From: Elusimicrobia bacterium GWF2_62_30
GTDB taxonomy: Bacteria; Elusimicrobiota; Elusimicrobia; Elusimicrobiales; UBA9959
Reading direction: 5' to 3'
Length of the DNA: 64,000 bases
NCBI GenBank assembly: GCA_001799995.1
Contig: MGUK01000070.1
Location: 9,056 to 73,055, forward strand
The notes under the pieces are model-generated. The model ran no database searches and was not told where the DNA came from. It worked only from the letters and a program-made list of their open reading frames with translations. A program made the position numbers and the translations under genes. Positions 24,514 through 55,377 of this stretch are shown here, in pieces; positions within the stretch are counted from its first letter, which is position 1, and each line of letters opens with the position of its first letter.

Positions 24514-24532
24514 CCGGCCCGGGCGAAGGGCT

Positions 24533-26050: not shown

Positions 26051-26063
26051 TTGCGGGGCGGCT

Positions 26064-33492: not shown

Positions 33493-35991
33493 ATGGAAAA
33501 CATAGTTTTCTTCGGCAAAGGCGGCATCGGCAAAAGCACCATCGCCTCCAACGTTACCGCGGCGCTCGCCCAGGGCAGCGCCAGGATCCTCCACGTGGGC
33601 TGCGACCCGAAAATGGATTCTTCGGTCTCCCTGATGGGCCGGGGCATCCCGCCCTTCACCTCCTCCGGGCTCCTCGAGGACGAGGAGACCCTCCGCAAGA
33701 GCATCCACCCTTCCCCGGTAAACGGCGTTTTCTGCATCGAGGCCGGCGGCCCCGACCCCGGGCTGGGCTGCGCCGGCGCGGGAATAAGCGCCATGCTCGA
33801 CACCATCCGCTCCGTCGCCCTGCTGGAGAAGGACCGCTACGACGCCGTGATCTTCGACGTGCTGGGCGACGTGGTCTGCGGCGGGTTCGCGGCCCCGCTC
33901 AGGCGCGGCTTCGCGCAAAAGGCCGTGATAGTCGTCTCCGAGGAAATACTGGCCCTCTACGCCGCCAACCGCCTGGTAAAGATGGTTGAGAACTATTCCC
34001 GCAACGGGGTTTACCTGGCCGGCCTGGCCGCCAACCTCAAGAACGCGGACGGCCTTAAAATAGTGCAGGATTTCGCCAGGGCGGTAAACACGAAGGTGCT
34101 GGGCGTGGTGCTGCGCAGCGCCGAGATCACGCGCGCGGAGAAGGCCCAGCGCGTAGCGGTGCTCCACGCCCCGCACAGCGACGCCGCCAGGCGCCTGCGC
34201 GCCCTGAGCCGGGCGATCGCTTCGGCCAGGCCGCCGGCCGCCCCCTGCCGGGCCCTGTCCGACCCCGAGATCTTCGCCTTCCTCAAAGGAGAGGCCGTAA
34301 AGCGCAGGCCGCCGGCCCCGCGGGCGGGCCCCGCTGCCCCCCGGTCCGGGCTCTCCCCCGTCGAGATGCGGGAGCTGCTGGACGAAATGGGTTTCAAGCT
34401 TTCGGGCATAGCCGGCGGCCAGGTGCTCTGCCGCCTGGGGCTGGACGGCCGCGAACTTAGGGTATTCATAGTCCCCGCGGGCAGGTGCGCCGAGGGAATG
34501 CAGCTCGTCAACGACTGGGGCATCTGCGTCGCCCCCGACGAGAAGGACGTGGACGGCGAACTCACGGGCAAGGTCCAGGCGGCGGCGCGCCGGCTCCGGC
34601 CCCTGCGCTTCGACGATTTCGTGGCCGCGTTCTGCGGCAGCGAAAGCTTTTACGGCAGCGTGATGACCTACAACCTCTCCGGGAACACCGCCGGGGACGG
34701 CCCGCCGGAGCGGCCTTATTACGCCTTCGGCCAATGGCAGAAATTCCTTTTCTCGAACTGCGACGGCAAATTCATCCCGCCTGGCTTCCCGATAGTCGAG
34801 CACGGCGACATCGAATGCCGCTTCGCCTTCTATAACGTAACGCCGCTGAGCATGTTCCAGACCTGGGGCGGCCTCGCGGGCAGCCCGGGCACTTCCCCCG
34901 TCCCGCGCCTGCCCAAGCAGGAAAAGAACGTCTTCAGCACCGGTTTCGATGCCCAGGACGCGTTCGCCGGGGACGAGGCGAAGATAGAGAAAGCCCTCAA
35001 CGTCGCCGCCGGCAGGACCGGGAAAAGCGGGCACGTAGAGCTTTATATGTGCTGCCCCGCCCACATGGTAGCGGGCGACGTGCGCGCCCCGGTGGAGCGC
35101 GTTTCCGAAAGAACGGGCATAAACGTCTTCATCGAGAGCTGCAACAGCATTTCGGTCCATGCCCCCGCCAAGACGGCCGCGCGCGCGGACTTCGTGGAGA
35201 AAGAACTGTCTTCCCGCGGCCGGCGCAAGCCTTCCCGCGACGTGAATTTTATAAACTTCGGCGATCCCCGGAAGCCGCTTTCCGCGCTGCTGGAAAGCGG
35301 CGGCCTTACGATAACGGCCCCTTCGGACGACCTCTACGCCGATATCCTCTCGGCCAGGCTGCAGATCCTGCCGGAGCCTGAGCCGGTACTGGTGCGGGCT
35401 TTCGAGCGGCGCGGCATAAAGTGGGTGTCGCCGCCGGCGCCTTACGGTTTCGCGGCCACCTCCAGGTGGCTGGCCGGCGTCTACTCGGCCCTGGGCCGGC
35501 CCGCGCCGCGCCCGCCGCGCGGCGGCGCCGCCGCGGCCCTGCGGCGCGGGCTGGCGGCCGGCTGCTCCGCGTTCACCGCCGGCTTCGTCGCCGCGCCCGA
35601 CGAGCTGCCCGTCCTTCTTTCGGACAGGTTCCCCGTTCTCGGCTTCATGGCCGAGGCGGGCTTCGCCCTCAGGCTGATGCTGTACGCGCCGGACAAGGAA
35701 GCAGAAAAGAAGGCTGAGCGGCGGACGCAGGAACTCCGCGCCAGGTTCAGCCGCGCCCGCGTGACGGCCGTTCTTTTCCGGACGCCGGCCCAGCTGGCCG
35801 CCGCCCTGGCCGGAGACCGCAAAATGCGGCTGGTCTATTCGGATATCGTCGCCGACCGGCGGATAGTCTCCGCCGGCAGGAACGTGCTGTCCCCCGCCGT
35901 CTTCGAGCCGGGCTACGACGGAGCGCTGGAAACCGCCAGGCGGCTGCTCAGGCTCTGCAAATGGAATTTCAATGAACGATACCTCCGCTGA
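33493..35991 (+). CDS. Nitrogenase-like fusion protein: NifH/BchL/CfbC-type ATPase (res 1 to ~265) + linker/insert + NifD/BchN/CfbD-type component-1 domain (res ~400 to 832)
   Basis: FFGKGGIGKST (P-loop), GCDPKMDS (switch I), CIEAGGPDPGLGCAG and FDVLGDVVCGGFA (both 4Fe-4S Cys contexts). Later VEHGDIECRF and ELYMCCPAHMVAGD resemble component-1 Cys contexts. Confidence 0.8.
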   Translation: MENIVFFGKGGIGKSTIASNVTAALAQGSARILHVGCDPKMDSSVSLMGRGIPPFTSSGLLEDEETLRKSIHPSPVNGVFCIEAGGPDPGLGCAGAGISAMLDTIRSVALLEKDRYDAVIFDVLGDVVCGGFAAPLRRGFAQKAVIVVSEEILALYAANRLVKMVENYSRNGVYLAGLAANLKNADGLKIVQDFARAVNTKVLGVVLRSAEITRAEKAQRVAVLHAPHSDAARRLRALSRAIASARPPAAPCRALSDPEIFAFLKGEAVKRRPPAPRAGPAAPRSGLSPVEMRELLDEMGFKLSGIAGGQVLCRLGLDGRELRVFIVPAGRCAEGMQLVNDWGICVAPDEKDVDGELTGKVQAAARRLRPLRFDDFVAAFCGSESFYGSVMTYNLSGNTAGDGPPERPYYAFGQWQKFLFSNCDGKFIPPGFPIVEHGDIECRFAFYNVTPLSMFQTWGGLAGSPGTSPVPRLPKQEKNVFSTGFDAQDAFAGDEAKIEKALNVAAGRTGKSGHVELYMCCPAHMVAGDVRAPVERVSERTGINVFIESCNSISVHAPAKTAARADFVEKELSSRGRRKPSRDVNFINFGDPRKPLSALLESGGLTITAPSDDLYADILSARLQILPEPEPVLVRAFERRGIKWVSPPAPYGFAATSRWLAGVYSALGRPAPRPPRGGAAAALRRGLAAGCSAFTAGFVAAPDELPVLLSDRFPVLGFMAEAGFALRLMLYAPDKEAEKKAERRTQELRARFSRARVTAVLFRTPAQLAAALAGDRKMRLVYSDIVADRRIVSAGRNVLSPAVFEPGYDGALETARRLLRLCKWNFNERYLR

Positions 35992-37249
35992 CGGCGAATT
36001 TTCAAGGACCTACGTGCTCCCGTACCTGCTGGGCGTTTACCTGGCGGCCAACGCGGTCAAGGACGTCTGCGTGGTGGTGGACGGGCCTGACTGCATCATG
36101 CAGAAGGCGGACCTCATCTGGGGCAACCACGACCTTTTTTCCACGCTGCTGTCGGGCGAAGGGCGGCACAGGATCCTCTGCACGATGGCCCACCCGGTCT
36201 CTTCCGACCGCAGCCCGGACACGAAGATAACCACGCTTGTCGGGAAGGTGGCCGCCTCGGGGCAATTCGGCGCGGTAGTGCTGACGGCGCTGCCTTTCAG
36301 CAGGATCTCCGGCGTGGATTACGCGGGGATAGCCGCCGCCGCGTCCGCCAGGACGCCGGTGGCCTATGTCCCCGCCAAGTCGCTGGAGCTGGACTGGCTG
36401 GACGGCTACGACGAGACGCTGGCCGCGCTGGCCCGGTCGCTCCCCGCGCCCCGCAAAGCTATAAAGCGCCGGCGCGCGGTAGTGCTGGCCGGCTATATGC
36501 TGGACCGCAACGAATTCGACCACTCGGCCAACCTGGCCGAGCTGCGGCGGCTGCTGGCGGCGGCCGGGCTTGAGACGGTCTCTGTCTGGCCTTCCGGCGG
36601 CGATTGCGCGGAGCTCGCCCGCGCCGCGCAAGCGGGGCTGGTAGTTTCCCTGCCGCACGGCAGGAAGACGGCGAAGGCGCTGTCCGAAAGGTTCGGCGCC
36701 CCGCTCGTGGAGACAGGGCTGCCGCTGGGTCTGCAGGGGACCCTCGACTGGCTTCGGACCATAACCCGGGCGGCCGGGCTCCGCGGGGAGCTGCCGGTAG
36801 CCCTGCGCGAGGAAGCCAGGCGGACGGCCGCGGTCATCGCCCCGGCCCTGCCGGCGCTCCTCCACAAGAACATCCTTTTCACCGGCGACCCGGGCCTTTA
36901 CTCGGCCCTGGCCTCCTTCGCGGAGGAACTGTGCATGGACGCCTCCTGCGCGCTGCTTAACACCAGGCGGCGCCCGGTCCGTACGGCCGGAACGCCTGCG
37001 GTAATGCTGTTCGGCCCGGAGATCCCGGCCGCGCGCGCCGCGGTACAGGCGCTGCCGGCCTACCAGAAGCCGCATCTCGCCGTCGGCGATTCGTTCGCGC
37101 TGTCCGAGGGGCTGAACTGCGGGCTGCCTTTCATGGAGTTCGGCTTCCCTTCGTACGCGCATCACTGCCTGACGGACGAGCCCTTCCTCGGTTTTTCCGG
37201 CGCAAGGAGCCTGGCCGCGCGCCTCCTTAACTGCCTGCACTCCGGTTAG
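35972..37249 (+). CDS. Nitrogenase component-1-like partner subunit (NifK/NifN/BchB-type)
   Basis: Overlaps the fusion gene by 20 nt. YLLGVYLAANAVKDVCVVVDGPDCIMQK resembles the HGP.GC-type N-terminal region of Oxidored_nitro proteins. Rossmann-like repeats follow (RRAVVLAGY..., NILFTGDPG). Confidence 0.65.
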   Translation: MNDTSADGEFSRTYVLPYLLGVYLAANAVKDVCVVVDGPDCIMQKADLIWGNHDLFSTLLSGEGRHRILCTMAHPVSSDRSPDTKITTLVGKVAASGQFGAVVLTALPFSRISGVDYAGIAAAASARTPVAYVPAKSLELDWLDGYDETLAALARSLPAPRKAIKRRRAVVLAGYMLDRNEFDHSANLAELRRLLAAAGLETVSVWPSGGDCAELARAAQAGLVVSLPHGRKTAKALSERFGAPLVETGLPLGLQGTLDWLRTITRAAGLRGELPVALREEARRTAAVIAPALPALLHKNILFTGDPGLYSALASFAEELCMDASCALLNTRRRPVRTAGTPAVMLFGPEIPAARAAVQALPAYQKPHLAVGDSFALSEGLNCGLPFMEFGFPSYAHHCLTDEPFLGFSGARSLAARLLNCLHSG

Positions 37250-37295: not shown

Positions 37296-38249
37296 ATGAG
37301 ACAAAAACGACCTGCGGCCCGCCGGAAGATAGAGCTGAACCAGATCATCAACGTGACCGCCGCGTGCAACCAGCGCTGCCTTTTCTGCTCGAGGGACAGC
37401 TGGCTGCCCCCTCACCCCCCCAAGCTCATCCGGGCCTCGATACGGAAGTTCAAGGACTCCGTCTGCTTCGAAGGAGGCGAGCCGACCCTCTTCCCGGACA
37501 CCCTCAAATGGATACGCTTCGCGAAGAAGGAAGGGGTCAGGAACGTCGTCCTCGTCACCAACGGCTTTTCCCTGGACGACCCCGCGGCGGCGGAGAAATA
37601 CGTCGAGGCCGGCGTGGATTTTTTCAACGTGAACCTGCCGGCGCATACCCCGGCCCTTTACGACGCCCTCACCCGGACCCGGGCCAACTTCGCCCGGCGG
37701 GTCAAGGCGGTGCGCACACTCATCCGCGCCGCGGGCGGGCGCAAGGTCCGCGTCACGCTGGTAGCGACCTCCGTCATGATCCCGAAGCTGCCGGAGTACG
37801 CCCTGTTCGTGCTGCGGAATTTTCCCGAGCTGCTCTACCTGGAGATAAATTTCCCGAAGCTGCTCGGCGGCTGCGTGGAGCGCCCCTGGCTCATACCGGA
37901 CCTCGCCGCCTGCCGGCTGCCCCTGCGGACGGCGGTAAAGCTCCTGCAGGCGGGCGGGATGAAGGTGATTACCGACGGGTTCCCGCTCTGCGCGATGAAA
38001 GGCTTCGAATACTGCGCGATAGACGCGCACGCGGCGGCTTACGGCGACCTCGGCCAGGACTACCTGGCGGAAAAGGAGCAGCGCCCGCCCTGTTCAGGCT
38101 GCTCGCTGGCGGCCGTCTGCAGGGGCCCGCGCAAAGATTATGTTTCCCGTCACGGCTGGAAAGAGCTACGCCCGAGCCGGGTGACGCCGGCTTCGGTGAA
38201 GGCGAAGATAGAGAAGGTTTTCGGCAGGCGCGGCGGCGGCTCCCGCTAG
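37296..38249 (+). CDS. Radical SAM enzyme, HxsC-like paralogue family
   Basis: CNQRCLFC, FEGGEPT, C-terminal CSGCSLAAVCRGPRKDYVSRHGWKELRP. Confidence 0.85.
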   Translation: MRQKRPAARRKIELNQIINVTAACNQRCLFCSRDSWLPPHPPKLIRASIRKFKDSVCFEGGEPTLFPDTLKWIRFAKKEGVRNVVLVTNGFSLDDPAAAEKYVEAGVDFFNVNLPAHTPALYDALTRTRANFARRVKAVRTLIRAAGGRKVRVTLVATSVMIPKLPEYALFVLRNFPELLYLEINFPKLLGGCVERPWLIPDLAACRLPLRTAVKLLQAGGMKVITDGFPLCAMKGFEYCAIDAHAAAYGDLGQDYLAEKEQRPPCSGCSLAAVCRGPRKDYVSRHGWKELRPSRVTPASVKAKIEKVFGRRGGGSR

Positions 38250-40359: not shown

Positions 40360-41174
40360 CAGGGAAAAGGGCAATAGACCAGCCGGTCGATACGCAGCTC
40401 CCGCAGTTCTTCGGCCGTGGAATAGAACTTTTCGGGGAACTCGAGGAAGACGGTGTTGCCCCGCACCGCGAGCTTTTCCTTTATCCAGGGATGGTCGACG
40501 GTGAAGGCGCAGGCCCGGCATTCCTGGCGGCACTCGATACCGCGCATGGAATCCTCCGGGCCGATATACGGCATCCCGACCATGCAGGTCCGCGTGGTCG
40601 TCAGGGGAAGGTAAGGGTAATAAAGAGTAAGGCTGAATTTCTCCCGGACGAACGGGCTGTCGTCCGACACGTAGTTGGCTACGGGCCTGGTGCCGGTGGA
40701 GGAGAACTCGTAGCGGCTTATCCCGCGTTTCGCCAGGAACGCCAGCGACAGGCTGTTCAGGACGGCTATGCCGTGGGCCTGCCTGACGAAGGCGTTGAGG
40801 GAGAACTGCCGTCCGGCGTTAAGCGTGAAGGGCAGCTTTTCGCGCGCGGCGAGCGCCAGCGCGCCGAAGTCGTTCACTGTTATCTCCAGCCTGTCCGCTG
40901 CCAGGCGCCCGGCGCGGTGCAGCTTCTTCAGCCCCTTGAAGACGGCCGACAGGCTTTCGACGCCCCTCTCCGTCAGGAGCGGGGTGAGCAGGCAGACTTT
41001 CTTGCCCAGCTCCTGGTACCCGGCCGCTTCGGCGCAGACGGACGCGTCCAGGAGGTTCTCGCAGAATTCCGAACCGATATAGACCCAGTCGAACCGCTTC
41101 AGCGCGTCCTTCACCCTGGTCTCCGGGAAGACGGAGCCGCCGAGCCTGATGCCGTGTTCGACGCGCCCCGTCAT
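40359..41174 (-). CDS. Divergent U32-like partner subunit (UbiV-like position)
   Basis: Only the last 271 codons of track ORF 40359..42050 are used; the ATG at 41174 overlaps the upstream stop (ATGA). FDWVYIGSEFCENLL, ITVNDFGAL, Cys group TTTRTCMVG...IECRQECRACAF. Confidence 0.5.
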   Translation of the reverse strand: MTGRVEHGIRLGGSVFPETRVKDALKRFDWVYIGSEFCENLLDASVCAEAAGYQELGKKVCLLTPLLTERGVESLSAVFKGLKKLHRAGRLAADRLEITVNDFGALALAAREKLPFTLNAGRQFSLNAFVRQAHGIAVLNSLSLAFLAKRGISRYEFSSTGTRPVANYVSDDSPFVREKFSLTLYYPYLPLTTTRTCMVGMPYIGPEDSMRGIECRQECRACAFTVDHPWIKEKLAVRGNTVFLEFPEKFYSTAEELRELRIDRLVYCPFP

Positions 41175-42124
41175 AGCTTGGGCTCCCGCCACCCGGACAT
41201 CTTTTCGATGAACCGCCGCCTGGCCTCGGCGGGCGGGAGGCAAGCGCGCAGCTCTTCGGCCAGGTCCAGCATAAGCCGCATCTCGCGCACCTTTTTGAAC
41301 TTTTGCGCGGAGGGGTCCTGGCGTATCCCGTACTTGAGGTAGCCGAGCCCGCCCGCGAAGAAGTCGAAGAAAGACGCCGCGTTGGCTATGCGCGGGGTGG
41401 TGCCGCAGCCGAACCTTTCGGAAAAGCGTTTTATGATCCCGCCCAGCCGCGGCTTCCACGCCGGGGAGAGGTTTATCACTCCCGGCGCGGGCATGCCGCA
41501 GGCCCCCATATCGGGGTGGCACATGGAGCCGCCTTTGTATTTGCGGGTGGCGCTGTAATATTCCGGCCTGTGCATATGGCAGCGGCCGTTCAGGTAGGAG
41601 CAGCCGAAGAACCGGTAGTCGAACATCTCCGTCTCTATCTTCTTCCGGCGGCAAAGGGCGAAGAGCTTCTTCGCTTCGTAAGGGGAAAGCTGGTTCGGGA
41701 GGATTATCCGCTTTATCCCAAGCCTTATGAAAAAATCCGCCGTCAGGCTGTTGAAGCAGGGCTGTAAAGAACTGAGATGAAGCCCCGCCCGGAGCCGCTT
41801 CAGCCTTGAGAAAAGCGTGAACATGGCGGGGTTCGCCACGATGAAATAATCCACCCCGAGCCCGTCGGCCTCCCCCAGGAGTTCGACCATGGAGGCCTCG
41901 CTGCGGGGATCGAAGTTCAGCGTCACGCTGTTGACCGCGAGGGAGATCTTCAGGCCCTCGGCGTGCGCGCTGCGCACGGCGTCCCCTAGCGCCTTCATGT
42001 CCGGCAGGGATTCCTGCGGCCCGAAGGAGGGCAGCTGGGCCACGCCGCAATAAAGCTCGTCCGCGCCGGCTTTAGCCAGCGCCCGGATCTCCGCGGGGTC
42101 AACGAAGCAGGAAACTATCTTCAT
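41171..42124 (-). CDS. Peptidase U32 family protein (UbiU-like)
   Basis: KAGADELYCGV..., GLKISLAVNS, GVDYFIVANPAM, LHLSSLQPCFN, GIKRIILPNQLS, and EMFDYRFFGCSYLNGRCHMH, which resembles the U32 E.F..G..C....G.C signature. Confidence 0.7.
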   Translation of the reverse strand: MKIVSCFVDPAEIRALAKAGADELYCGVAQLPSFGPQESLPDMKALGDAVRSAHAEGLKISLAVNSVTLNFDPRSEASMVELLGEADGLGVDYFIVANPAMFTLFSRLKRLRAGLHLSSLQPCFNSLTADFFIRLGIKRIILPNQLSPYEAKKLFALCRRKKIETEMFDYRFFGCSYLNGRCHMHRPEYYSATRKYKGGSMCHPDMGACGMPAPGVINLSPAWKPRLGGIIKRFSERFGCGTTPRIANAASFFDFFAGGLGYLKYGIRQDPSAQKFKKVREMRLMLDLAEELRACLPPAEARRRFIEKMSGWREPKL

Positions 42125-43044
42125 CAGAATCTTTCGGGCTCTATGGAAGCGGGGTCTTTTTTAGACGCCTTAAGTTCGCCGGACCCGTGCGCTTGCAGGT
42201 AATCGGCCCGGGCGCCGCAGCAGGCGGGCTCCAGCGCGCAGCGGGAGCAGGCCGGGCAGGCGGCTTTCGCGTCCACCCCGCCTTCCAGCACCTTGTCTCC
42301 CCGCCGCCAGCGGTGGAACTCGAAGGAAAAGCCCTCGGTGCCTTTCAGTTGGCAGAGGGGCACGTTCTGCGCCACGGTCTTGAGGCCGTTCATTTTCAGC
42401 GTAGCCAGGGCCATGTTCAGGAAAGGGGCCACCTGGGAGTAGCGCGGGATGATGGCGGGAGTTTTCAGCGCCCTGCCCTTGTTGCGGACGAAAGTGAAAT
42501 TGACCAGGGCCGCGCGGGGAAAATTCCTGGAAGCCCAGAGCGCGAATTCCGGCAGGAACCTGTAGTTAAGGCTGGAGATAATATGAAAGAGCCGGAGCTT
42601 TTCCTCCGCCCCGGCGGCCTTGAGGTTGGCCAGCCCCCTGACGGCCAGCTGGAACTTGACGCTGCGGGTGGCCCGCGCGTAAACCTCGGGCCGGTGGGAA
42701 GGGAAGTTAACGGTGAAATACTCTATTTCCTTTACCGATTTTTTACAGAAAGCGGGATCGGAAAGAGCCACCGCGTTGGTGGAAAGCATGAAATTCCTGA
42801 CCCCGGCGGCTTTAAGGGTTTTTATCCAGGTGAAAAAGTCACCACTGGCCGTGGGTTCGCCCCCGCCCTCCAGGCTTACGGCTTTGATCCCCGTTCTTTT
42901 AAGCTCCGCGGCGGTTTCGGGGAGGCCGCGCCTTTCGCCGGTGGGCGGGTTATGGCAATAGACGCAGTACAGGTTGCAGGTGCGCGCCATGCTGACGCAG
43001 GCCTGCTCGCTTATCCATTTCTTTTTCACGCCGGGATTCGCCAT
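42124..43044 (-). CDS. Radical SAM enzyme, HxsC-like paralogue family
   Basis: CNLYCVYC, LEGGGEPT, C-terminal CSRCALEPACCGARADYLQAHGSGELK. Its stop overlaps the U32 start (TGATG). Confidence 0.85.
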   Translation of the reverse strand: MANPGVKKKWISEQACVSMARTCNLYCVYCHNPPTGERRGLPETAAELKRTGIKAVSLEGGGEPTASGDFFTWIKTLKAAGVRNFMLSTNAVALSDPAFCKKSVKEIEYFTVNFPSHRPEVYARATRSVKFQLAVRGLANLKAAGAEEKLRLFHIISSLNYRFLPEFALWASRNFPRAALVNFTFVRNKGRALKTPAIIPRYSQVAPFLNMALATLKMNGLKTVAQNVPLCQLKGTEGFSFEFHRWRRGDKVLEGGVDAKAACPACSRCALEPACCGARADYLQAHGSGELKASKKDPASIEPERF

Positions 43045-43182: not shown

Positions 43183-45714
43183 ATGGAAAGCATCGTATTC
43201 TTCGGCAAAGGCGGCATAGGCAAGAGCACCATTGCCGCCAGCGTCACGTCCCTCCTCGCGGCCGGGGGCAAGAAGGTCCTGCATATCGGCTGCGACCCCA
43301 AGATGGACTGCACCCTTTCCCTCATGGGCAGGCATATCGAGCCTTTCGCCATCCTGGGCGGCAGTTCCGGCCGCCCCGGCCTGCGCGACAGCATTTACCA
43401 GTCCCCGGTCCGCGGCGTCCACTGCATCGAGGCCGGCGGCCCGCAGCCCGGCGTAGGCTGCGGCGGCACCGCCATAGGCTCCATGCTGGACGCGATGAAG
43501 GACGAGGCCCTGCTCGAAAAAGACGGCTACGGCGCCGCCGTGTTCGACGTGCTCGGCGACGTGGTCTGCGGCGGCTTCGCGGCCCCGCTCCGGCGCGGCT
43601 TCGCGAAAAAGATGGTGATAGTCACGTCGGAAGAGATCCTTTCCCTTTACGCGGCCAACAGGCTGATAATGATGGCCGCCAACTACGCGCGCAACGGCGT
43701 CTACCTGGCCGGGCTCGCGGTGAACCTGAAGGACCAGACCCGCCTTAAGACCGTGGAGGAGTTCGCCCGCGCCGTGAACACCCGCATCCTGGGAGTGATG
43801 CTGCAGGACCCGGCCGTCTCCTCCGCCGAGCGCGAGCACAGGCCCGCGGCCATCGCCTACCCCAAGAGCGGCTTCGCGCGCCGGGTCTGGGCGCTGACGC
43901 AGGAGATACGGACGGCCAGGCCGCCGGCCACGCCGCCGCGCGCCCTGCCGGACCCGGATTTTTTCGCTTTCGCCGAAGGCAGGAGGACGGCCGTGCCCGC
44001 GGGCGCGCCCGCCGGGAAGGGCAGGAAGCAGGCCGTGAGATCCGCCAAGGCCCTTTTTTCCGCCGCCGGCTTCAAACCGGCCGGCATGGAAGACAGCCAG
44101 ATAATCTGCGACTGGAAATGCGGGCAGTCCCTTTACAAGGTAGTGATAGCGCCGGGCTCCTCGGCGAAGGGCGACATGCCCCGCATCTCGGACTGGGCCG
44201 TCTGCTTCCACCCGACGACCCCGCAGGAACCGCCCCCCCCGGGAGGCGCGCTGATGAAAGCCGCCGGGACCCTGGCCGGGCTGCGCTTCGACGAGATGCT
44301 GTCCGTTTTCACCGGGTCCAGGGATTTTTACGGGCCGCTCCTTAACCTGTCCGGCCCGGAAGACACGACCCTGGCCGCCCCCGACACGCCGCGGCGGCCG
44401 CACATGGGCTTCGGCCAGTGGCAGCGCTTCATCTTCCCCGCCGGGCTGAGCCAGGCCTACATCCCCCCCGGCTCGGTCATGGTCGAGCACGGCGATATCG
44501 AATGCCGCTTCTGCTCCTCCGAAAGCGGCATCCTGAACATGTTCAACGACAACCCCGGCATCAAGACCCCCGGCAAGGCCCTGAACATGCCGGTGCTGCC
44601 GAGGATAGACAAGCGCATCGTCAACACGGGCTTTTCCTCCGACGACGCGCTCTTCGGCGACGAGAAGAAAGTGGCGCGGTCCCTGGAAGCCGCGGCGGAT
44701 AAGGCCGGCCCCGGCGGGCTCGTGGAATTCTACGTCGGCTGCTCCCCCATCATGCTCGCCGGCGACACTTCCTCCCTGGCCGCGCGGGTCGAGCGGGAGA
44801 AGGGCGTAAAGATCATGCTGGAGCGCTTCAACAGTTTTTACGAGCACGGCAGCGCCAAGGGCGCCGTGCGCGTTTCGTACATGGCCCACAAACTTTCCAA
44901 GGCTGGCGCCGCGAAGGACCGCGACGTCTACCTGGCGGACTCTCACGACCCCACGGGCGTCCTGGACAAGCTGCTGGCCGAACACGGGATCTCCACCGTG
45001 GACCGCCGCAAGGATTTTTACCGCGAGGCGGCCTCGGCGCGCCTGCAGGTGCTCTCCCATCCCGATACCGTGCTGACCCCGGCTTTCGACAAGGCGGGCC
45101 TGAAGTGGATAATGCCGCCCCAACCCTACGGTTTCGGCGGCACGCACAAGTGGCTCGGCGCCATTGCCTCGGCGCTGGGCAGGAAAAAAGCCCCCGCGGG
45201 CCCCTCGGCGGCCCAGAAGGCGCTGGCGGCGGGGCTTTGGGCCCGCGCCAGCCGCTATACGGCGGCTTTCGTCCTGGCCACCGAGGAGATCGGCCTTCTT
45301 TCCGGGAGCACCGCGCTTAAAATGGTGCCCGTGCTGCCGGTGCTGGCCGAAGCCGGTTTCAAGGTGCGCCTGCTCCTGATGACCGCGGAAGGCCGGGACG
45401 GGAAGGCCGGCAAGCCCGGGCTCCCTGCCGAAGCGGCGGCGCAGCTCCGGGCGCTGAAAGCCTCCCTGCCGGGCACGCACCTCTCCACGGACACCTTCTC
45501 GAAGCAGGAAGAGCTGGCCAGGCTGCTGCGGGCTGACCCGCCCACGCGCCTGGTCTACTCGGACATACGCCGCGACCCGCGCGTGGTCTCCGCCGGGAAA
45601 TATCCGTTTTCGACCTCGCTCTTTGAACCGGGCTACGACGGCGCGCTGGAAACCTGGCGCAGGCTGCTGGCCCTCTGCGAATGGGATTTCAATGAAAGAT
45701 ACCTCCGGAACTGA
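43183..45714 (+). CDS. Second nitrogenase-like NifH-type/NifD-type fusion protein (843 aa)
   Basis: The ATG at 43183 (MESIVFFGKGGIGKST) lies inside track ORF 42187..45714. GCDPKMDC, CIEAGGPQPGVGCGG, FDVLGDVVCGGFA, later VEHGDIECRF and EFYVGCSPIMLAGD. 31 of the first 42 residues are identical to copy 1 (hand count). Confidence 0.8.
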   Translation: MESIVFFGKGGIGKSTIAASVTSLLAAGGKKVLHIGCDPKMDCTLSLMGRHIEPFAILGGSSGRPGLRDSIYQSPVRGVHCIEAGGPQPGVGCGGTAIGSMLDAMKDEALLEKDGYGAAVFDVLGDVVCGGFAAPLRRGFAKKMVIVTSEEILSLYAANRLIMMAANYARNGVYLAGLAVNLKDQTRLKTVEEFARAVNTRILGVMLQDPAVSSAEREHRPAAIAYPKSGFARRVWALTQEIRTARPPATPPRALPDPDFFAFAEGRRTAVPAGAPAGKGRKQAVRSAKALFSAAGFKPAGMEDSQIICDWKCGQSLYKVVIAPGSSAKGDMPRISDWAVCFHPTTPQEPPPPGGALMKAAGTLAGLRFDEMLSVFTGSRDFYGPLLNLSGPEDTTLAAPDTPRRPHMGFGQWQRFIFPAGLSQAYIPPGSVMVEHGDIECRFCSSESGILNMFNDNPGIKTPGKALNMPVLPRIDKRIVNTGFSSDDALFGDEKKVARSLEAAADKAGPGGLVEFYVGCSPIMLAGDTSSLAARVEREKGVKIMLERFNSFYEHGSAKGAVRVSYMAHKLSKAGAAKDRDVYLADSHDPTGVLDKLLAEHGISTVDRRKDFYREAASARLQVLSHPDTVLTPAFDKAGLKWIMPPQPYGFGGTHKWLGAIASALGRKKAPAGPSAAQKALAAGLWARASRYTAAFVLATEEIGLLSGSTALKMVPVLPVLAEAGFKVRLLLMTAEGRDGKAGKPGLPAEAAAQLRALKASLPGTHLSTDTFSKQEELARLLRADPPTRLVYSDIRRDPRVVSAGKYPFSTSLFEPGYDGALETWRRLLALCEWDFNERYLRN

Positions 45715-46987
45715 GTTCCCCAAGACCTTCAACCTGCCCTACCAGCTGGGAGTCTACCTGGCGGCGAACGCCGTATCGGATTCCTGCGCGTTCATGGACG
45801 GCTCGAACTGCGTGATGCCGAAGATAGATTTCATCGCGGGCAATCACGACCTGTATTCCACGCTGCTCTCCCCCGCCGGCACGCACAGGGTCATCTGCAA
45901 CATGGCGGGCCCGCTCCCGCAGAAGAGCAACCCCGAAAAAGCCCTTTCGGGCATGCTTTCCGGCGTGGCCGGCTCCGGCCTTTACTCGGTGATCATGGTG
46001 ACCGGCCTTCCCTTCCAGAAGCTGGCCGGCATGGATTACGAAGGGATAGCCGCCGGGATCAAGGGCCCGGTGCCGGTAGTGGACGTGCCCCCCTCTTCGC
46101 TCGAAGGCGACTGGCTCGACGGCTATGCCGGCGCCCTGGACGCGCTGGCCCGCGCCCTGCCGGAGCGGAAGCTGAAAAAACGCAGGCGCACGGTGGCGCT
46201 AGCCGGCTACCTGCTGGACCGCAACGAGGGCGACCATAAGGCGAACATCGCGGAGCTGCGGCGGCTGCTCGGCCTCTGCGGGCTGGAGCTGGTCTGCGTT
46301 TTCCCCTCCGGCGGCACTTTTGCGGAACTCTCGCGCGCCCTGGAGGCCGAAGTGGTGGTCTCGCTGCCGTACGGGCGCAAGGCCGCCGCCAGGCTGGCGC
46401 AGCGGTCCGGCGCCGTCCTGGTGGAGACCGGGCTGCCGCTGGGCCTCAAAGGCACCGCCGGCTGGCTTAAGGACATCTGCGCGGCCGCGGGGATAAAGGG
46501 CGGGCTCCCGCAGGCCGTAAAGGACCTTGAGCGGCAGGCCGCCGCCGACATCGCCCCCCTGCTCGACGCCATAGCCCACCTGAGCCTGGTCTACGCCGGC
46601 GATCCCTATCTCTTCTCCGGGCTTTCCGCCTTTACCGCCGAGCTCGGCATGCGGCTGCCGCTGGCCATCATAGATTCTTTTCCCAAACCCCTAGGCACCG
46701 GGAAAGTCCCGGAAAGCCTCCTTTTTTCGCCCGGCACCGGGGAGGCCGCCGCGGCGATAGCCGCTTTGTCCGGCTATTCCAGGCCGGCCCTGCTCGCCGG
46801 GAACACGTTCGCCCTCACGGAAGGTTATTCCAGGGGGATCGCCTTCCTGGAGATCGGGTTCCCGTCCTACAGCCACCATTGCCTCGGCCCGGAGCCGTAC
46901 TTCGGCTTCGCGGGAGCGGCGACCCTGGCGGGCCGCATCCTGAACTCCGTCTGCGGCCCCATGACCGAACTGGGCAAGCTGGGCTGA
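45692..46987 (+). CDS. Second nitrogenase component-1-like partner subunit
   Basis: The ATG at 45692 (MKDTSGTEFPKTFNLPYQLGVYLAANAVSDSCAFMDGSNCVMPK) overlaps the fusion gene by 23 nt. It is collinear with 35972-37249. Confidence 0.65.
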   Translation: MKDTSGTEFPKTFNLPYQLGVYLAANAVSDSCAFMDGSNCVMPKIDFIAGNHDLYSTLLSPAGTHRVICNMAGPLPQKSNPEKALSGMLSGVAGSGLYSVIMVTGLPFQKLAGMDYEGIAAGIKGPVPVVDVPPSSLEGDWLDGYAGALDALARALPERKLKKRRRTVALAGYLLDRNEGDHKANIAELRRLLGLCGLELVCVFPSGGTFAELSRALEAEVVVSLPYGRKAAARLAQRSGAVLVETGLPLGLKGTAGWLKDICAAAGIKGGLPQAVKDLERQAAADIAPLLDAIAHLSLVYAGDPYLFSGLSAFTAELGMRLPLAIIDSFPKPLGTGKVPESLLFSPGTGEAAAAIAALSGYSRPALLAGNTFALTEGYSRGIAFLEIGFPSYSHHCLGPEPYFGFAGAATLAGRILNSVCGPMTELGKLG

Positions 46988-47034
46988 CGGAAGGGCCGGC
47001 GCAAGAACCACGCCGGAGGCGGTCTGAAAAAATC

Positions 47035-48234
47035 GTGAAAACATTTTACCTGTCCCTGCTCTGGGACTGCAACGAGAACTGCGTGTTCTGCCTTAAGAAG
47101 GCCCCCCCCGAGCAGGAGAACTCCGTCCCCCCGCTGCTGGAATGCCTGGCGGCCCTGAAGCGCCAGCGCGCCAGGGGGTTCGCCTCGGTCTCCCTCGACG
47201 GCGGCGAGCCTACGCTCAGGCGTGACCTGCCGCGCATCCTGAAGTACGCCCTTTTGCTCGGCTACAAAAAAATAATGGTCATGACCAACGGCGCCGCGCT
47301 GAGCGCGGAGAACGTCCGGCGGCTGGCCGCGCCGGAAGGCGGCCGCCCCTCGCGAATTTCTTTCTGCGTCTCGCTCCACTCCCATAAACGGGCCGTCTCC
47401 GAAAAGCTGACGCGCTCCCGCGGGACCTTCCGGCGGACCGTGGACGGAATAAAGAACCTGCTGGCCGCCGGCTTCGACGTCTCGGTCTATCACGTCATAA
47501 CGCGCCAGAACTACCGCGCTCTCCCGGGCTTCGCAGATTTCGCCGCGCGGGAATTAAAGGGCGTTTCAAAGGTGGTCTTTTCGCACATTTACCCCGTGCA
47601 GCACAACCTGGCCGCCATGCGCGGCGTCTACCCCAGATTTTCAAGCGCCCTGCCTTTCCTGGCCGGGGCCATAAGCCGGCTTGAGCGCGCGGGGGTAACG
47701 CCCATGCTGGGCAATTCCGGCATGATGCCGGTCTGCCTGCTGCGGGGACAGGAAAGTTTTTTCACGCAGGCCTATCTCAAGCATGACGGGGACGCCGTCA
47801 CCTTCGACAGGAACAAGTGGGATACGCGCGACAGCCGGAAGCTGGAGCTGCTCCCCTTTTTCCGGGACGATTTCAACGAGCGCAACCGGGTCAAGGCCGC
47901 GGCCTGCGGGAAGTGCGCCCTCAGGGACGTCTGCAGCGGGATCTGGCGTTTTTACGAGGAGCTCTACGGCGCCGGAGAGCTCAAGCCCTACAAAAAAGAC
48001 GCTTTCAGCGGCATCCCGGCGGACGGCCCCCGGGCCGTGATACGGGCGGCCGGGAGCCGCGCGGCCGGCCTGCAGCCCCTCCTGGTGCGGTTGCTCGACG
48101 CGAGGCTTAAGGGGCACGGCTCGGCGCTGGTCCCGGGCCTGCACGGCAAAAGCCGGAAGACCGCGGCGGCTGAATTCGCGCGGGGCATCGGGATGAAATT
48201 ATATTTCGGAAGAACTCAGGGCCGCGGGCAATAG
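47035..48234 (+). CDS. Radical SAM enzyme, HxsC-like family, with a C-terminal extension
   Basis: CNENCVFC, LDGGEPT, CGKCALRDVCSGIWRFYEELYGAGELKP. There is no in-frame ATG after the upstream stop, so a GTG at 47035 is inferred as the start. About 80 extra C-terminal residues. Confidence 0.7.
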   Translation: MKTFYLSLLWDCNENCVFCLKKAPPEQENSVPPLLECLAALKRQRARGFASVSLDGGEPTLRRDLPRILKYALLLGYKKIMVMTNGAALSAENVRRLAAPEGGRPSRISFCVSLHSHKRAVSEKLTRSRGTFRRTVDGIKNLLAAGFDVSVYHVITRQNYRALPGFADFAARELKGVSKVVFSHIYPVQHNLAAMRGVYPRFSSALPFLAGAISRLERAGVTPMLGNSGMMPVCLLRGQESFFTQAYLKHDGDAVTFDRNKWDTRDSRKLELLPFFRDDFNERNRVKAAACGKCALRDVCSGIWRFYEELYGAGELKPYKKDAFSGIPADGPRAVIRAAGSRAAGLQPLLVRLLDARLKGHGSALVPGLHGKSRKTAAAEFARGIGMKLYFGRTQGRGQ

Positions 48235-51695: not shown

Positions 51696-52133
51696 CTAAT
51701 ATGACCCGTGCGAGCCGTGCGAGCCGTGCGAGCCGTGCGACCCATGCGAGCCGTGCGAGCCGTGCGAAGCATGCGAGCCGTGCGAAGAATGAGACCCGTG
51801 CGAGGTGTGCGAGCCGTGCGAGGCGTGGGAGCCGTGCGACCCGTGCGAAGAATGAGACGAGTGCGAGGTGTGCGAGCCGTGCGAGGCATGCGACGAGTGC
51901 GAAGCGTGCGACGAGTGCGAGCCGTGCGAGCCGTGCGAGGAATGCGAGCAGGCGGCTTCGGTGGATTTGACCGAAACCAGCAGCGCGCCGAGCCCCATGC
52001 CCAGGCCGATGGTGGCCCCGGCCATGTTGCCGATCTTCGTCTTGGTTATGCGTCCCTCCTCGCAGGTGAGGAACTTTTGAAGGCTCTTTTTAAGACGGGG
52101 AAGCTCGTCTTTTGGTTTTTTGCGTTCAGGCAT
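51696..52133 (-). CDS. hxsA: His-Xaa-Ser repeat protein (precursor/scaffold of the Hxs system)
   Basis: 145 aa. Basic N-region, hydrophobic GNMAGATIGLGMGLGALLVSV, then 27 uninterrupted S-H-x triplets (SHSSHGSHGSHSSHA...SHGSHGSY) running to the C-terminus. It lies immediately downstream of two rSAM maturase-like genes. Confidence 0.8.
   Translation of the reverse strand: MPERKKPKDELPRLKKSLQKFLTCEEGRITKTKIGNMAGATIGLGMGLGALLVSVKSTEAACSHSSHGSHGSHSSHASHSSHASHGSHTSHSSHSSHGSHGSHASHGSHTSHGSHSSHGSHASHGSHGSHGSHGSHGSHGSHGSY
51699..51947. repeat. Degenerate 9-bp-periodic tandem repeat encoding the H-x-S array
   Basis: The plus strand reads (gtgcgagcc/gtgcgaagc/gtgcgaccc...)n. All alternative frames are open, which creates several spurious track ORFs. 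Confidence 0.9.
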
Positions 52134-52183: not shown

Positions 52184-53680
52184 TCACTTTTTGAACACGT
52201 CCTTATACCAGCCCTCGTTAAGCCAGGAGGCCAGGACCTTCCGGTCCTCCGGGCGCGAAAGCTTTTCGAAAATTATCTTCAGTATGCCCTTGTTCATCAT
52301 GCAGCGCTGGTCGTTGGCCTTCTGCGGGAACAGGCTGCCGGAAAAATAGCTGTTGATGGGGCAGACCCCGCAGAACGGCTTGAAAGCGCAGTCGGAGCAG
52401 CCCGGCAGGCTTTCGAGGCAGGAGGAGACGCACAAGGTCTTGGTGACGGGGCTTTCCAGCACCTGGGTATAGGAGGTGTCGGCCACGTTGCCCAGCCGAA
52501 AGCTCTCGTCCCCCATCACGGAAAGCATGCGGCCCTCGTCGCAGGTGTAGATGTCGCCGTTGTAGTTATAGGCCAACTGCCCTATGGCGGCGCCGCAGAT
52601 CATGCGGCAGTCCATATGCGCGGGATCGGAGCCGGACAGGATCTTGGTAAGCAGGGTCTGCGCCGTCTTCTCGCGGATCTTGACGCCCTTGAGGTTAAGG
52701 GTTATCAGGTACTCCAGCAGTTCCCGGTAGAACGCCAGGTACTCCGCCGCGCCGTAGCCGATGCGCTGCCAGTTGGCCGCGGTAAAGCCGAAAGGGTTCA
52801 GCGGGCGCGCGTAGATCTCGCGCAGGCCCAGGCGCAGGTATTCGTCCACCAGCGCGCGGGCGGAGCCGAGCGCCTGCCTGGTGACGGTGGCGAGGGCCGT
52901 TATCCTGTAGATGTAGCCCTTCTTGAGATAGCGCGGCCGGGCCTTGTTGAACTTCTTGATCCAGGAAACGACCTGCGCGTGGCTGGAGCCGCGGCTGTAG
53001 ACGCGCTGCGCGTCGTGCAGCTTGGCCGGGCCGTCGAGCGAGGTGGCGACGCCGATATTGTTGCGGAAGATGAAATGCAGCTTTTCCTCGTCCAGCGAAG
53101 AGAGGTTGGAGACCAGTTTGAAATCCACGCTCTTTTTGAGCTTGGCGGCCTTGTCCTGGGCGTACTTGACCGAGAAAAGCAGGGTCTCCCAGTTCAGGAA
53201 GGGTTCGCCGCCCTGGAACTCTATGACCAGATTCTTCCCGGCGGAGGCGAAAATGAAGTCCAGCGTCTTGCGGGCCGTCTCCACGTCCATGTCGAAGCGC
53301 TTGTCCTCCTCGCCCTTGGCGGAGGCGTGGCAGTACACGCATTTCTGGTTGCAGCGTATCGTGAGGATCATGATATGCAGCGTAGTGCCGGCGAACACCG
53401 AGGAATGGAGGTTGGCGAACTTCTCCGCGCAGGACGCGAAGCCGGCCGATTCCACGAAGAAGCCGCTCTCGGACAGCTCCGCGTATTTGGGATGGCCGCA
53501 GTCCAGCTTCCCGGAGGAGAAAGCCGTGAATTCGTTCTTGTCGAGCACGGCCCAGCCGCCCCAGTCGTTGGTGACCAGCATGCGGCCGAGGCCCATCGGC
53601 TCGAAATAATAAGCGCCGGTCTCGGGAGCGGGCACCACTTCCGTCACGGCCGCGGCGGGCTTGGTTTTCTTGGTCTTCAT
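52184..53680 (-). CDS. hxsB: Radical SAM/SPASM-like maturase (HxsB-like)
   Basis: CNQKCVYCHAS, FQGGEPF, C-terminal Cys clusters (...CDEG..., CSDCAFKPFCGVCPINS), an anSME/SPASM-type layout. The ATG at 53680 overlaps the upstream stop (ATGA); the track start at 53692 is a GTG. Confidence 0.7.
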   Translation of the reverse strand: MKTKKTKPAAAVTEVVPAPETGAYYFEPMGLGRMLVTNDWGGWAVLDKNEFTAFSSGKLDCGHPKYAELSESGFFVESAGFASCAEKFANLHSSVFAGTTLHIMILTIRCNQKCVYCHASAKGEEDKRFDMDVETARKTLDFIFASAGKNLVIEFQGGEPFLNWETLLFSVKYAQDKAAKLKKSVDFKLVSNLSSLDEEKLHFIFRNNIGVATSLDGPAKLHDAQRVYSRGSSHAQVVSWIKKFNKARPRYLKKGYIYRITALATVTRQALGSARALVDEYLRLGLREIYARPLNPFGFTAANWQRIGYGAAEYLAFYRELLEYLITLNLKGVKIREKTAQTLLTKILSGSDPAHMDCRMICGAAIGQLAYNYNGDIYTCDEGRMLSVMGDESFRLGNVADTSYTQVLESPVTKTLCVSSCLESLPGCSDCAFKPFCGVCPINSYFSGSLFPQKANDQRCMMNKGILKIIFEKLSRPEDRKVLASWLNEGWYKDVFKK

Positions 53681-53916
53681 ATTGAATTGCACAGCGCCAT
53701 GTTCACAAATTCCGCTTCTACGCGCTCGGCCGGCACCCCGCCCTTGGGCGTTATGACCGCCGTGATATAGGCGCCGCTGCCGGAAATGGAAAAGTCCGCC
53801 AGGGCGGAATATTCACGCGCCGCCTCTTTAACGGCGGCTTCCTTGTAGATCTCCCGGTGCAGCTTAATGCTTAGCTTTTTTAAGCTTGTCTTTTTGGGGC
53901 TTTTCTTTGTCGCCAT
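53677..53916 (-). CDS. Small protein resembling the N-terminal two-thirds of HxsD (second HxsD-like module)
   Basis: 79 aa. IKLHREIYKEAAVKEAAREYSALADFSIS...ITAVITPKGGVPAERVEAEFVNMAL parallels LNLDTYSLESVYQAAYSMLDKLYFYF...LMVEIKSKENLPMPALEKLKGEFLNELL of the upstream gene. Its stop is coupled to hxsB (ATGA). Confidence 0.4.
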   Translation of the reverse strand: MATKKSPKKTSLKKLSIKLHREIYKEAAVKEAAREYSALADFSISGSGAYITAVITPKGGVPAERVEAEFVNMALCNSI

Positions 53917-54274
53917 ATTTTTCTTCCCAGGGCAGCGCTATGCCCAGCGGGTCCTCGATGTAATCGGCCTTGTCGGCGGAGGCGCCTATCAGCGCCTGGG
54001 CTATCAGAGCTTCGCGGACCTTCCTGGTGCGCTTGGCCACGGAAACGCGCAGCTCGGAGTTGAGCAGCTCGTTGAGAAATTCTCCCTTCAGCTTTTCAAG
54101 GGCCGGCATGGGGAGGTTTTCCTTGGATTTTATCTCCACCATGAGGGTTTTGGCGTTGCGCTTGTCGAAATAGAAATAGAGCTTGTCCAGCATGGAATAA
54201 GCCGCCTGATAGACGCTTTCCAGGCTATAGGTGTCGAGGTTGAGGTTGAAGACCGATTTATTCATTTTATCCAT
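53864..54274 (-). CDS. hxsD: HxsD-like protein
   Basis: FLNELLNSELRVSVAKRTRKVREALIAQAL fits the LLNDYxLRE-type motif I recall for the HxsD family. The ATG at 54274 (MDKMNK) is preferred over the longer track ORF. Confidence 0.55.
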   Translation of the reverse strand: MDKMNKSVFNLNLDTYSLESVYQAAYSMLDKLYFYFDKRNAKTLMVEIKSKENLPMPALEKLKGEFLNELLNSELRVSVAKRTRKVREALIAQALIGASADKADYIEDPLGIALPWEEKYGDKEKPQKDKLKKAKH

Positions 54275-55373: not shown

Positions 55374-55377
55374 AATA

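Follow-up and report, generated by a model that had tools for sequence, protein, structure and literature searches.

In characterised nitrogenase-like (NFL) systems, the Fe protein docks transiently. Here we describe a locus of Elusimicrobia bacterium GWF2_62_30 in which a NifH-type module (H) and a NifD/MarD-type module (D) are encoded as one polypeptide, HD1, followed by a NifK/BchB-type partner, K1. The locus lies in a stretch of 64,000 nucleotides (GenBank assembly GCA_001799995.1, contig MGUK01000070.1, positions 9,056 to 73,055 of the forward strand; hereafter ‘the window’). HD1/K1 is a new member of a named, uncharacterised family, and its architecture has been noted once before.

The family in question, Group VI, comprises NifH paralogues from Elusimicrobia lineages IV/V, Gracilibacteria and Myxococcales, with radical SAM (rSAM) genes around them (Méheust et al. 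2020, preprint). Its D and K subunits are highly divergent, retaining ‘at most four cysteines’ of the P-cluster six (Chem Rev 2026, PMC13474568), and for roughly a third of the Elusimicrobia genomes in the group, NflH and NflD are the only subunits recorded (PMC13474568, section 7). Fusions of NifH with NifD/E have been noted in passing, as ‘data not shown’, the ‘NifHD/E’ proteins being removed from the analysis (Dos Santos et al. 2012, BMC Genomics 13:162). These fusions follow the same logic as HD1 (reductase fused to an alpha-type component-1, beta-type gene next), but come from Archaea, Firmicutes and Deltaproteobacteria, whereas HD1 comes from Elusimicrobia. An H-D fusion is not mentioned in the Méheust preprint and its supplements, in the Chem Rev 2026 review or in Pi et al. 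2022; the preprint, supplements and review likewise do not mention the accessory domain or the link between rSAM and Hxs genes described below.

The closest solved structures to the H and D modules are those of methylthio-alkane reductase (MarHDK; PDB 9fmg, 9d9u), in which H, D and K are separate proteins and a complex cofactor is built by MarB (Chem Rev 2026, PMC13474568). HD1 differs in that H and D form one chain, the window showed no gene of NifB/MarB type, and conserved cofactor ligands are lacking. The closest match of K1 is BchB of DPOR (BchL/BchNB), and the predicted inter-subunit [4Fe-4S] cluster of HD/K would, as in DPOR, have fewer than four Cys ligands. The ligands are split differently, however (three from N and one from B in DPOR; two from D, one from K and a fourth, probably non-Cys, ligand predicted in HD/K), HD1/K1 fall below the BchL and BchN/BchB cut-offs, and the window is without chlorophyll genes. 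In isethionate reductase (IsrBHDK), a nitrogenase-like HDK requires, by genetic evidence, a radical SAM protein encoded beside it (PMC11423573), so that dependence of an NFL on an rSAM partner has a precedent. IsrB is a NifB homologue with a radical SAM domain only (Chem Rev 2026, PMC13474568), whereas the rSAM proteins beside HD/K are HxsC/MoaA-like; the Isr subunits are also unfused. The HXS system, HxsABCD (Haft & Basu 2011, as cited in PMC9062424), is a four-gene antiphage system in E. coli, where HxsB, HxsC and HxsD mature HxsA (five repeats plus a peptidoglycan-binding domain) with a gain of 8 Da (+8 Da); 99.7% of HXS systems are found in Pseudomonadota, and nitrogenase homologues are not mentioned (Li et al. 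2026, PMC13128918).

The HD1-K1 unit consists of the following features, listed with the evidence for each (pLDDT, predicted local distance difference test; ORF, open reading frame).

33493..35991, plus strand: HD1, an 832-aa ORF encoding a single-chain fusion of NifH-type module, linker, accessory domain and NifD/MarD-type module
33493..34287, plus strand: H module, residues 1-265, a P-loop ATPase with predicted [4Fe-4S] ligands C93 and C129 (Pfam, NCBIfam, PDB sequence search, Foldseek)
34288..34356, plus strand: Pro/Ala/Arg-rich linker, residues ~266-288 (low conservation; pLDDT about 51-70)
34357..34635, plus strand: accessory alpha/beta domain, residues ~289-381 (stand-alone AlphaFold2 model, pLDDT >90)
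34723..35991, plus strand: D module, residues ~411-832, with a component-1 alpha-type fold (Pfam and profile search)
35972..37249, plus strand: K1, the NifK/BchB-type partner, 425 aa (20-nt overlap with HD1; Pfam E 3e-40)
37296..38249, plus strand: HxsC-like radical SAM gene closing the HD1-K1 unit (Pfam Radical_SAM; best NCBIfam matches HxsC4/HxsC, both below cut-off)

An earlier reading of this DNA, made without database searches (the sequence-only reading), had proposed an H-D fusion overlapping a K-type partner by 20 nt, and ORFs, Pfam domains, GC content at third codon positions (GC3) and relatives all agree on this point. In HD1, Fer4_NifH covers residues 3-264 (E 3.7e-64) and Oxidored_nitro residues 475-673 (E 1.2e-10; a partial match, profile positions 39-250 of 399), while Oxidored_nitro spans the whole of K1 (residues 21-422, E 3e-40). 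In-frame GC3 of HD1 is 0.79-0.93 in all 100-codon windows, the H/D junction included, so that nothing points to a shift of frame. A search of 5.8 billion protein clusters for relatives of HD1 returned 1496 matches, 120 of which were listed; 95 of these 120 are 780-900 aa long, and those listed that cover 95-100% of HD1 share 26-75% identity with it, nearly all carrying both PF00142 and PF00148. Among the matches listed, every named full-length relative derives from an Elusimicrobia/Elusimicrobiota metagenome-assembled genome, where its annotation goes no further than ‘AAA family ATPase’, ‘nitrogenase component 1’ or ‘hypothetical’. The family is rare, since a HMMER search of 1.84 billion representatives with HD1 residues 266-832 recovered only 419 proteins at E<=1e-3; the strongest matches are fused proteins, accompanied by many unfused D-like proteins of 560-730 aa with N-terminal extensions.

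An assembly or frameshift artefact, or a pseudogene, could in principle mimic such a fusion, the true genes being separate nifH-like and nifD-like ORFs; one HD copy in a related locus (L002) is indeed broken over two frames, and Myxococcales-type loci have unfused H and D arrangements. However, the HD1 frame is continuous with uniform GC3, proteins of 780-900 aa recur (95/120) in many samples and sources, two paralogous fusions (HD1 and HD2) occur within the same window, and the region of linker plus accessory domain is conserved and confidently folded. We therefore regard an artefact as effectively refuted, its probability being very small, and the HD1 fusion as genuine with near certainty. 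The fused H-D form is a conserved state in Elusimicrobia, a demonstration that is new here.

The AlphaFold2 single-chain model of HD1 has a mean pLDDT of 84 and a predicted template modelling score (pTM) of 0.54. Its H module best matches 9fmg_D, the Fe-protein chain of methylthio-alkane reductase, in Foldseek (template modelling score, TM, 0.92; root-mean-square deviation 1.7 A; 40% identity), and many NifH structures also superpose on it. The compositional bias of the linker begins at about residue 245, with 10 Ala, 10 Pro and 6 Arg among the 46 residues from 245 to 290. In the accessory domain that follows (~95 aa), D341, W342 and P348 are conserved, and C313 and C345 occur in 74-81% of members. 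No fold match to this domain was found in the PDB (best Foldseek E 0.09, TM <0.4), nor any match in Pfam, and it is missing from some fused relatives (L003, 744 aa; the second copy of L002, 768 aa); as modelled, it appears to be a fold-orphan inter-module domain predicted with confidence, and is new here. A disordered stretch of about 25 residues (388-406 in the AlphaFold2 model) separates it from the D module.

Because Fe-protein matches filled the top 50 in a Foldseek search with the whole HD1 model, the D fold was tested by searching PDB sequences with a profile built from the D part of HD1 and 28 unfused relatives. The profile matched 9d9u_A/9fmg_A (‘Nitrogenase’, the D-type chain of the methylthio-alkane reductase entries) at 2e-33, followed by NifE (2e-26), NifD (~1e-22) and BchN (2e-12). 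Together with the Pfam Oxidored_nitro match, these results bear out the proposal in the sequence-only reading of a component-1 region at about residues 400-832, and indicate that HD1 residues 400-832 form a bona fide component-1 of the alpha type. K1 best matches BchB among PDB sequences (4e-9), with NifK also near.

Invariance within the HD family was scored over 43-97 aligned members. P-loop K9 and K14, switch I D38 and D42, and C93 and C129 of the H module are invariant in 97 members, as are the motifs GKGGIGKS, DPKxD and DVLGDVVCGGF (P-loop, switch I and switch II) among 97 sequences; every motif that the sequence-only reading quoted is present. In nitrogenase, Arg100 of NifH is a docking residue. 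Its equivalent in HD1 is A96, and the commonest residues at this position among the 97 family members are A, T, V and Y, with no Arg among them. The apparent loss of this residue, new here, suggests that the docking surface of the HD family is altered.

In the D module, D439, C442, C521, G652, Y782, S783, D788 and R790 are invariant, C442 and C521 across the full set of 97. Cys positions were assigned from the motif contexts HG-x-x-x-C and C-P-x-x-x-GDD and from the BchB alignment, and not by structural superposition. C442, in the context HGDIEC (HGDxEC), resembles HG-x-x-x-C of NifD Cys88, and C521, in MCCPAHMVAGD, resembles the (T/C)C-P-x-x-x-GDD context of NifD Cys154, as seen in the 9d9u_A/9fmg_A alignment; no conserved equivalent of NifD Cys62 was found in the D-module family alignments. 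Cys41 (DGPDC) is the sole conserved Cys of K (10/11 partners), and in K1 it aligns no more than one residue from BchB Asp36, the position of NifK Cys95. Three of the six P-cluster Cys positions are thus retained (D: C442, C521; K: C41). No invariant Cys or His was found beyond C521 in either D family alignment, and the ligand pair of the iron-molybdenum cofactor (FeMo-co; NifD C275, H442) would therefore be absent. Given three conserved Cys and no FeMo-co ligand pair, the inter-subunit D/K cluster is most likely a simple, DPOR-like [4Fe-4S] cluster with at most three Cys and an O/N ligand, not a P-cluster/FeMo-co pair; invariant D439 is a candidate for the fourth ligand.

Several of these features bear on family membership. 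HD1 falls below the NCBIfam cut-offs (bits/cut-off) for CfbC (225/402), NifH (TIGR01287; 217/394), BchL (163/345) and BchX (137/331), as does K1 for BchB (59/490) and BchN (59/324), which places the pair outside DPOR, COR and CfbCD. No match of NifB, NifX or NifEN type was obtained among the scanned genes of the window, the rest of the genome lying beyond the scope of the scan. A conventional N2-reducing nitrogenase with an odd gene layout would account for the intact NifH-type motifs, but is wholly improbable given a NifH equivalog score of 217 against a cut-off of 394, three of six P-cluster Cys positions, no detected conserved equivalents of Cys275/His442, and no nifB or nifEN seen in the window; the sequence-only reading had likewise argued against an N2-fixing enzyme.

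HD1/K1 very probably belong to the Group VI NFL paralogues, a membership assessed from NCBIfam cut-offs, motifs and host genomes rather than from a labelled reference tree. In the metabolic table of Méheust et al., the genomes RBG_16_66_12 and HGW-Elusimicrobia-3 are scored as having Group VI and none of Groups I-V. Both hold full-length fused homologues of HD1 (24-50% identity; L002; P0071, P0072), which indirectly supports a place for HD1 in the clade and agrees with the suggestion, in the sequence-only reading, that the locus may belong to a paralogue group of groundwater Elusimicrobia. HD1/K1 share with Group VI (Méheust et al. 2020; Chem Rev 2026 section 7) the same taxa, the NifH motifs, both cluster Cys, divergent D/K, the lack of FeMo-co ligands and NifB, and a dense rSAM neighbourhood, and their cysteine pattern fits the description of the group in Chem Rev 2026. 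Many rSAM genes lie nearby in the window (15) and in related loci L084, L087, L088 and L091, but not in L083 and L089. Annotation may account for the published count of genomes with ‘only NflH and NflD’, if a fused HD was entered as H and its K as D.

A K homologue is found in every one of the 17 Group VI loci examined (17/17). The arrangement of H and D varies. In the Myxococcales-type loci L005, L019 and L159, the H gene (270-286 aa) and an ‘extended D’ gene (~630-700 aa) are separate, with K next, and H and extended D overlap by 4 nt in L005 and L019; L015 has separate genes in the order D-K-H. The adjacent, overlapping genes of the Myxococcales-type loci indicate that H and D form a natural pair also where they are unfused. 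In L002 (RBG_16_66_12), one HD copy (9995-12507) is spread over two frames (579 + 319 aa) by a frameshift or assembly error, and a second (13783-16089) is intact at 768 aa but lacks the middle domain. The separate, overlapping H and extended-D genes of the Myxococcales-type loci point to the fusion as a lineage-specific joining of neighbouring, translationally coupled genes, which is not obligatory. With the fusions of Dos Santos et al. 2012 and the other fused architectures given below, the H-D architecture as such is not new, though it has never been studied. The sequence-only reading had called the fusion unusual; it is real, but it has precedents, including H-H-D and H-x-D forms, and separate genes serve in Myxococcales.

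Among the further forms encountered were H-H-D triple fusions of ~1090 aa (P0088, P0092, L036:2627-5884), tandem H-H proteins of ~585-635 aa (P0090, P0096) and proteins of ~1000 aa with ~350 aa between H and D (P0143, P0205). Downstream of the H-H-D gene of L036 (Myxococcota) come genes for a K-like protein, a TonB-dependent receptor, a Peripla_BP_2 binding protein, a FecCD permease and an ABC ATPase. L085:10001-17803 has the order HD (852 aa), rSAM, HD (830 aa), K, with one K for two fusions. Two Elusimicrobia loci (L086:12106-14392 and L088:1-2776) have extra D/K-like Oxidored_nitro pairs near HD-K, without an H of their own; a tethered H module might serve such components in trans.

The window also holds a second HD-K-rSAM cassette (43183-48234), which is new here and was unmentioned in the sequence-only reading. 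The genes concerned are the following.

41171..43044, minus strand: U32 gene (41171-42124) and HxsC-like rSAM gene (42124-43044), divergent from HD2; L090 shows this arrangement too
43183..45714, plus strand: HD2, the second fusion, 843 aa, 46% identical to HD1
45692..46987, plus strand: K2, the second partner, 431 aa, 53% identical to K1, with a 23-nt overlap with HD2
46879..48234, plus strand: HxsC-like radical SAM gene that follows K2; its start codon is uncertain (NCBIfam)

From about 10.9 kb on, the window forms one island. It contains 15 radical SAM genes, two of them with a detected B12-binding domain and a third (15048-17378) resembling B12-rSAM methyltransferases; three U32 genes; genes for an S-adenosylmethionine (SAM) methyltransferase, a carbamoyltransferase, a DUF2284 protein, a cysteine desulfurase-like protein (59443-60696), a GT2 protein, a polytopic membrane protein and six GDSL/TPR or TPR proteins; and the two HD-K-rSAM cassettes. 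The sequence-only reading had described these neighbours correctly (B12-rSAMs, a SAM methyltransferase, U32 genes and many rSAMs), but did not mention hxsA, hxsB and hxsD (51696-54376), which lie in the following group.

51696..52133, minus strand: hxsA4, encoding a 145-aa precursor with 27 His-Xaa-Ser repeats (repeat scan; NF038313 87.4 bits, cut-off 55)
52184..53692, minus strand: hxsB, encoding a radical SAM/SPASM maturase (TIGR03978 467 bits, cut-off 370, E 4.6e-140)
53864..54376, minus strand: hxsD (TIGR03976 59.5 bits, cut-off 50)
54441..55436, minus strand: HxsC-like radical SAM gene adjoining hxsD (best matches HxsC4/HxsC, below cut-off)

The HxsA4 precursor has a basic N-terminus, a hydrophobic segment, the repeats and a C-terminal GSY; no peptidoglycan-binding domain was detected in it. 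HxsC/HxsC4 is the best match for eleven rSAM proteins of ~300-450 aa, all below cut-off: the top HxsC score is 166 against 268 (61564-62493), with ten paralogues lower, so that none ranks as an HxsC equivalog. The genes run in the order HxsC-like, HxsD, HxsB, HxsA, which differs from the canonical HxsD-HxsB-HxsC-HxsA, and lie inside a ~16-kb operon-like run on the minus strand (about 48.2-64.0 kb) together with rSAM, U32, cysteine desulfurase-like and unknown genes. PADLOC made no defence-system assignment, giving only generic rSAM/viperin similarity. The likeness to HXS lies in HxsA, HxsB and HxsD families above NCBIfam cut-offs and in a predicted rSAM-matured His-Xaa-Ser precursor with an N-terminal export-like segment; compared with the E. 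coli system, however, the window has 27 repeats in HxsA4, about a dozen HxsC-like paralogues under the HxsC cut-off, and, in addition, B12-rSAMs, U32 proteins and two nitrogenase-like cassettes. The rSAM genes around HD/K thus appear to form an expanded His-Xaa-Ser system, an observation that is new here.

Elsewhere, HxsD-HxsB-HxsA triads with long (His-Gly-Ser)n precursors are widespread in metagenomes (L092-L171); these precursors have up to ~150 repeats (L113) and end in Y, W, QW or WC; the E. coli HxsA, with five repeats, is far simpler. The window further encodes six paralogous TPR or GDSL-lipase/TPR proteins of 398-755 aa (20071-28004 and 38266-40533), and a 55%-identical homologue of the 38266-40533 gene stands directly upstream of HD in L087. 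Before the island, a 585-aa ORF (2908-4665, minus strand) with FliF C-terminal, FliG middle and FliG C-terminal domains, an apparent FliF-FliG fusion, sits between motA and motB-like genes, and an IS200/Y1-type transposase gene (9175-9891, minus strand) separates the motility/regulatory genes from the rSAM island.

In order to gauge the NFL-Hxs link, 17 distinct Group VI loci were compared with 74 other NifH-family loci in the same scan; the contig scan used generic NifH patterns, and most of its 80 loci were ordinary NifH, serving as a negative control. Six of the 17 Group VI loci have an HxsB orthologue (39-43% identity) and none of the 74 others (Fisher p 1.9e-5), and an HxsA with HGS repeats is found in 4/17 and 0/74, respectively (Fisher p 8.9e-4). 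In L005, the order is HxsD-HxsB-H-Dext-K-HxsA (Dext, extended D), and in L159, on one strand, H-Dext-K-x-HxsD-HxsB-HxsA. In the reverse test, on 80 metagenomic loci with HxsB relatives, 57 have HxsD and 46 an HGS-repeat HxsA.

Several observations count against the interpretation of HD/K as an enzyme of an Hxs pathway, and against details of its proposed operation. The Group VI loci are not phylogenetically independent, so that the Fisher p-values overstate the support for the link and are indicative only. Among metagenomic HxsB loci of at least 10 kb, only 1 of 35 has H, D or K within 10 kb, a rarity that lowers confidence in any obligatory Hxs-NFL coupling, and in L083 and L089 the HD-K pairs have no rSAM in the vicinity. 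PF00590 (tetrapyrrole-type methylase) genes stand by HD in two related loci, L084 and L086. At a pTM of 0.54, domain packing in the HD1 model is undefined, and Group VI enzymes are known from sequence alone. To our knowledge, the substrates of characterised NFL enzymes are all small molecules, with no peptides among them. In the literature searched, no link between precursors of ribosomally synthesized and post-translationally modified peptides (RiPPs) and nitrogenase-like enzymes was found. On this evidence, NFL would serve only a minority of HxsA4-type systems, and these as an optional accessory at most.

The nature of the substrate is where the main alternative lies. HD/K could be a tetrapyrrole or cofactor reductase which, by analogy with DPOR, COR and CfbCD, reduces a porphyrinoid C=C bond to yield a new cofactor, while the rSAM and B12-rSAM neighbours tailor the macrocycle. 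The K partner is nearest to BchB, the B12-rSAM genes of the window show weak BchE-like matches, and PF00590 TP_methylase genes adjoin HD in L084 (two genes) and L086. Yet PF00590 also covers non-tetrapyrrole methylases, e.g. diphthine synthase; the BchE score is 143 bits against a cut-off of 481, and peptide- and P-methyltransferase models match equally. Moreover, no tetrapyrrole-pathway gene was found in the window, the H and D modules are nearer to methylthio-alkane reductase chains and NifE than to BchL/BchN, and the rSAM suite is of HxsB/HxsC type, with a bona fide HxsA4 precursor. A tetrapyrrole reductase, put forward by Méheust et al. 2020 and taken up again in Chem Rev 2026, therefore seems to us rather unlikely, at perhaps one chance in a handful. 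The sequence-only reading had also favoured anaerobic reductive tailoring of a tetrapyrrole-like substrate, for which PF00590 in two loci offers slight backing, but the Hxs genes favour a peptide at least equally. As the rSAM neighbours are mainly of HxsB/HxsC type and accompany HxsA4 and HxsD, a peptide-derived substrate is at least as strongly indicated, and is a serious rival to the published tetrapyrrole guess.

HD/K might also reduce no substrate at all, acting instead as an ATP-driven electron pump that primes rSAM [4Fe-4S] clusters, or as a NifEN-like metallocluster scaffold. The 15 rSAM genes and the cysteine desulfurase-like gene (59443-60696) of the island would suit such a role, as would the near-equal match of the D profile to NifE and to the D-type chain of methylthio-alkane reductase, and the extra D/K-like pairs without their own H in L086 and L088. 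Against it stand the HD-K pairs with no rSAM nearby (L083, L089), the fact that most HxsB systems work without any NFL, the failure to detect a NifB-type or NifX-type domain in the scanned window genes, and the lack of a conserved cofactor ligand pair. We consider this role quite improbable.

We favour, with moderate confidence, a single-chain Group VI enzyme residing in an island with an expanded Hxs system, in which it may contribute optional tailoring of the HxsA product. Fe proteins in general pair two H modules to hold one [4Fe-4S] cluster. By this analogy, the H modules of two HD1 chains would dimerise around a [4Fe-4S] cluster on C93/C129, each H being tethered by the Pro/Ala-rich linker and accessory domain to its NifD/MarD-type module. 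The D module and the translationally coupled K partner would form the catalytic alpha/beta unit, with D supplying C442 and C521 and K supplying C41 to the inter-subunit cluster. By binding and hydrolysing ATP, the tethered H2 dimer would push low-potential electrons to the D/K cluster, from which they would pass to a bound organic substrate; ATP-driven electron transfer to a simple Fe-S cluster is likely. A fixed H:D stoichiometry is a reasonable inference from the covalent tether. An (HD)2K2 assembly would provide one H2 dimer for two catalytic halves, that is, a built-in half-site or alternating docking, the ~40-residue linker, the accessory domain and the ~25-residue disordered stretch allowing the dimer to reach either half; the natural H-H-D fusions could represent another solution, in which a single chain carries both H copies.

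As to the reaction itself, we would tentatively read HD/K as a reductive tailoring enzyme, optional to the pathway, for an HxsA-derived product, although the chance that its substrate is Hxs-linked is, from gene context, somewhat short of even. A broader proposal, that Group VI enzymes are accessory tailoring reductases of HxsA4-type systems and use low-potential electrons, driven by ATP, to reduce an rSAM-generated structure derived from His/Ser, is more speculative still, and we hold it as a possibility of about one in three; this structure could be borne on the ribosomally made (His-Gly-Ser)n peptide, or by a small molecule cut from the peptide.

To the existing accounts of Group VI, the present analysis adds the fusion as a conserved Elusimicrobia state, the fold-orphan domain, the ligand pattern and the Hxs context. 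Of the named branches of the nitrogenase superfamily, only Group VI lacks a known reaction, and the link to HxsA4, HxsB and HxsD gives a testable lead to the HD/K substrate. The HD fusion, the H-H-D fusions and the unfused orthologues together make a comparative series for the coupling between docking, ATP hydrolysis and half-site reactivity; with only two genes, HD/K is also a simplified design for expression studies. The NFL-Hxs link connects two poorly understood systems. If HD/K and its Group VI relatives do act on HxsA-derived structures, this would be the first case of nitrogenase homologues taking part in the maturation of a peptide (RiPP-like), and would supplant the tetrapyrrole hypothesis for the group.

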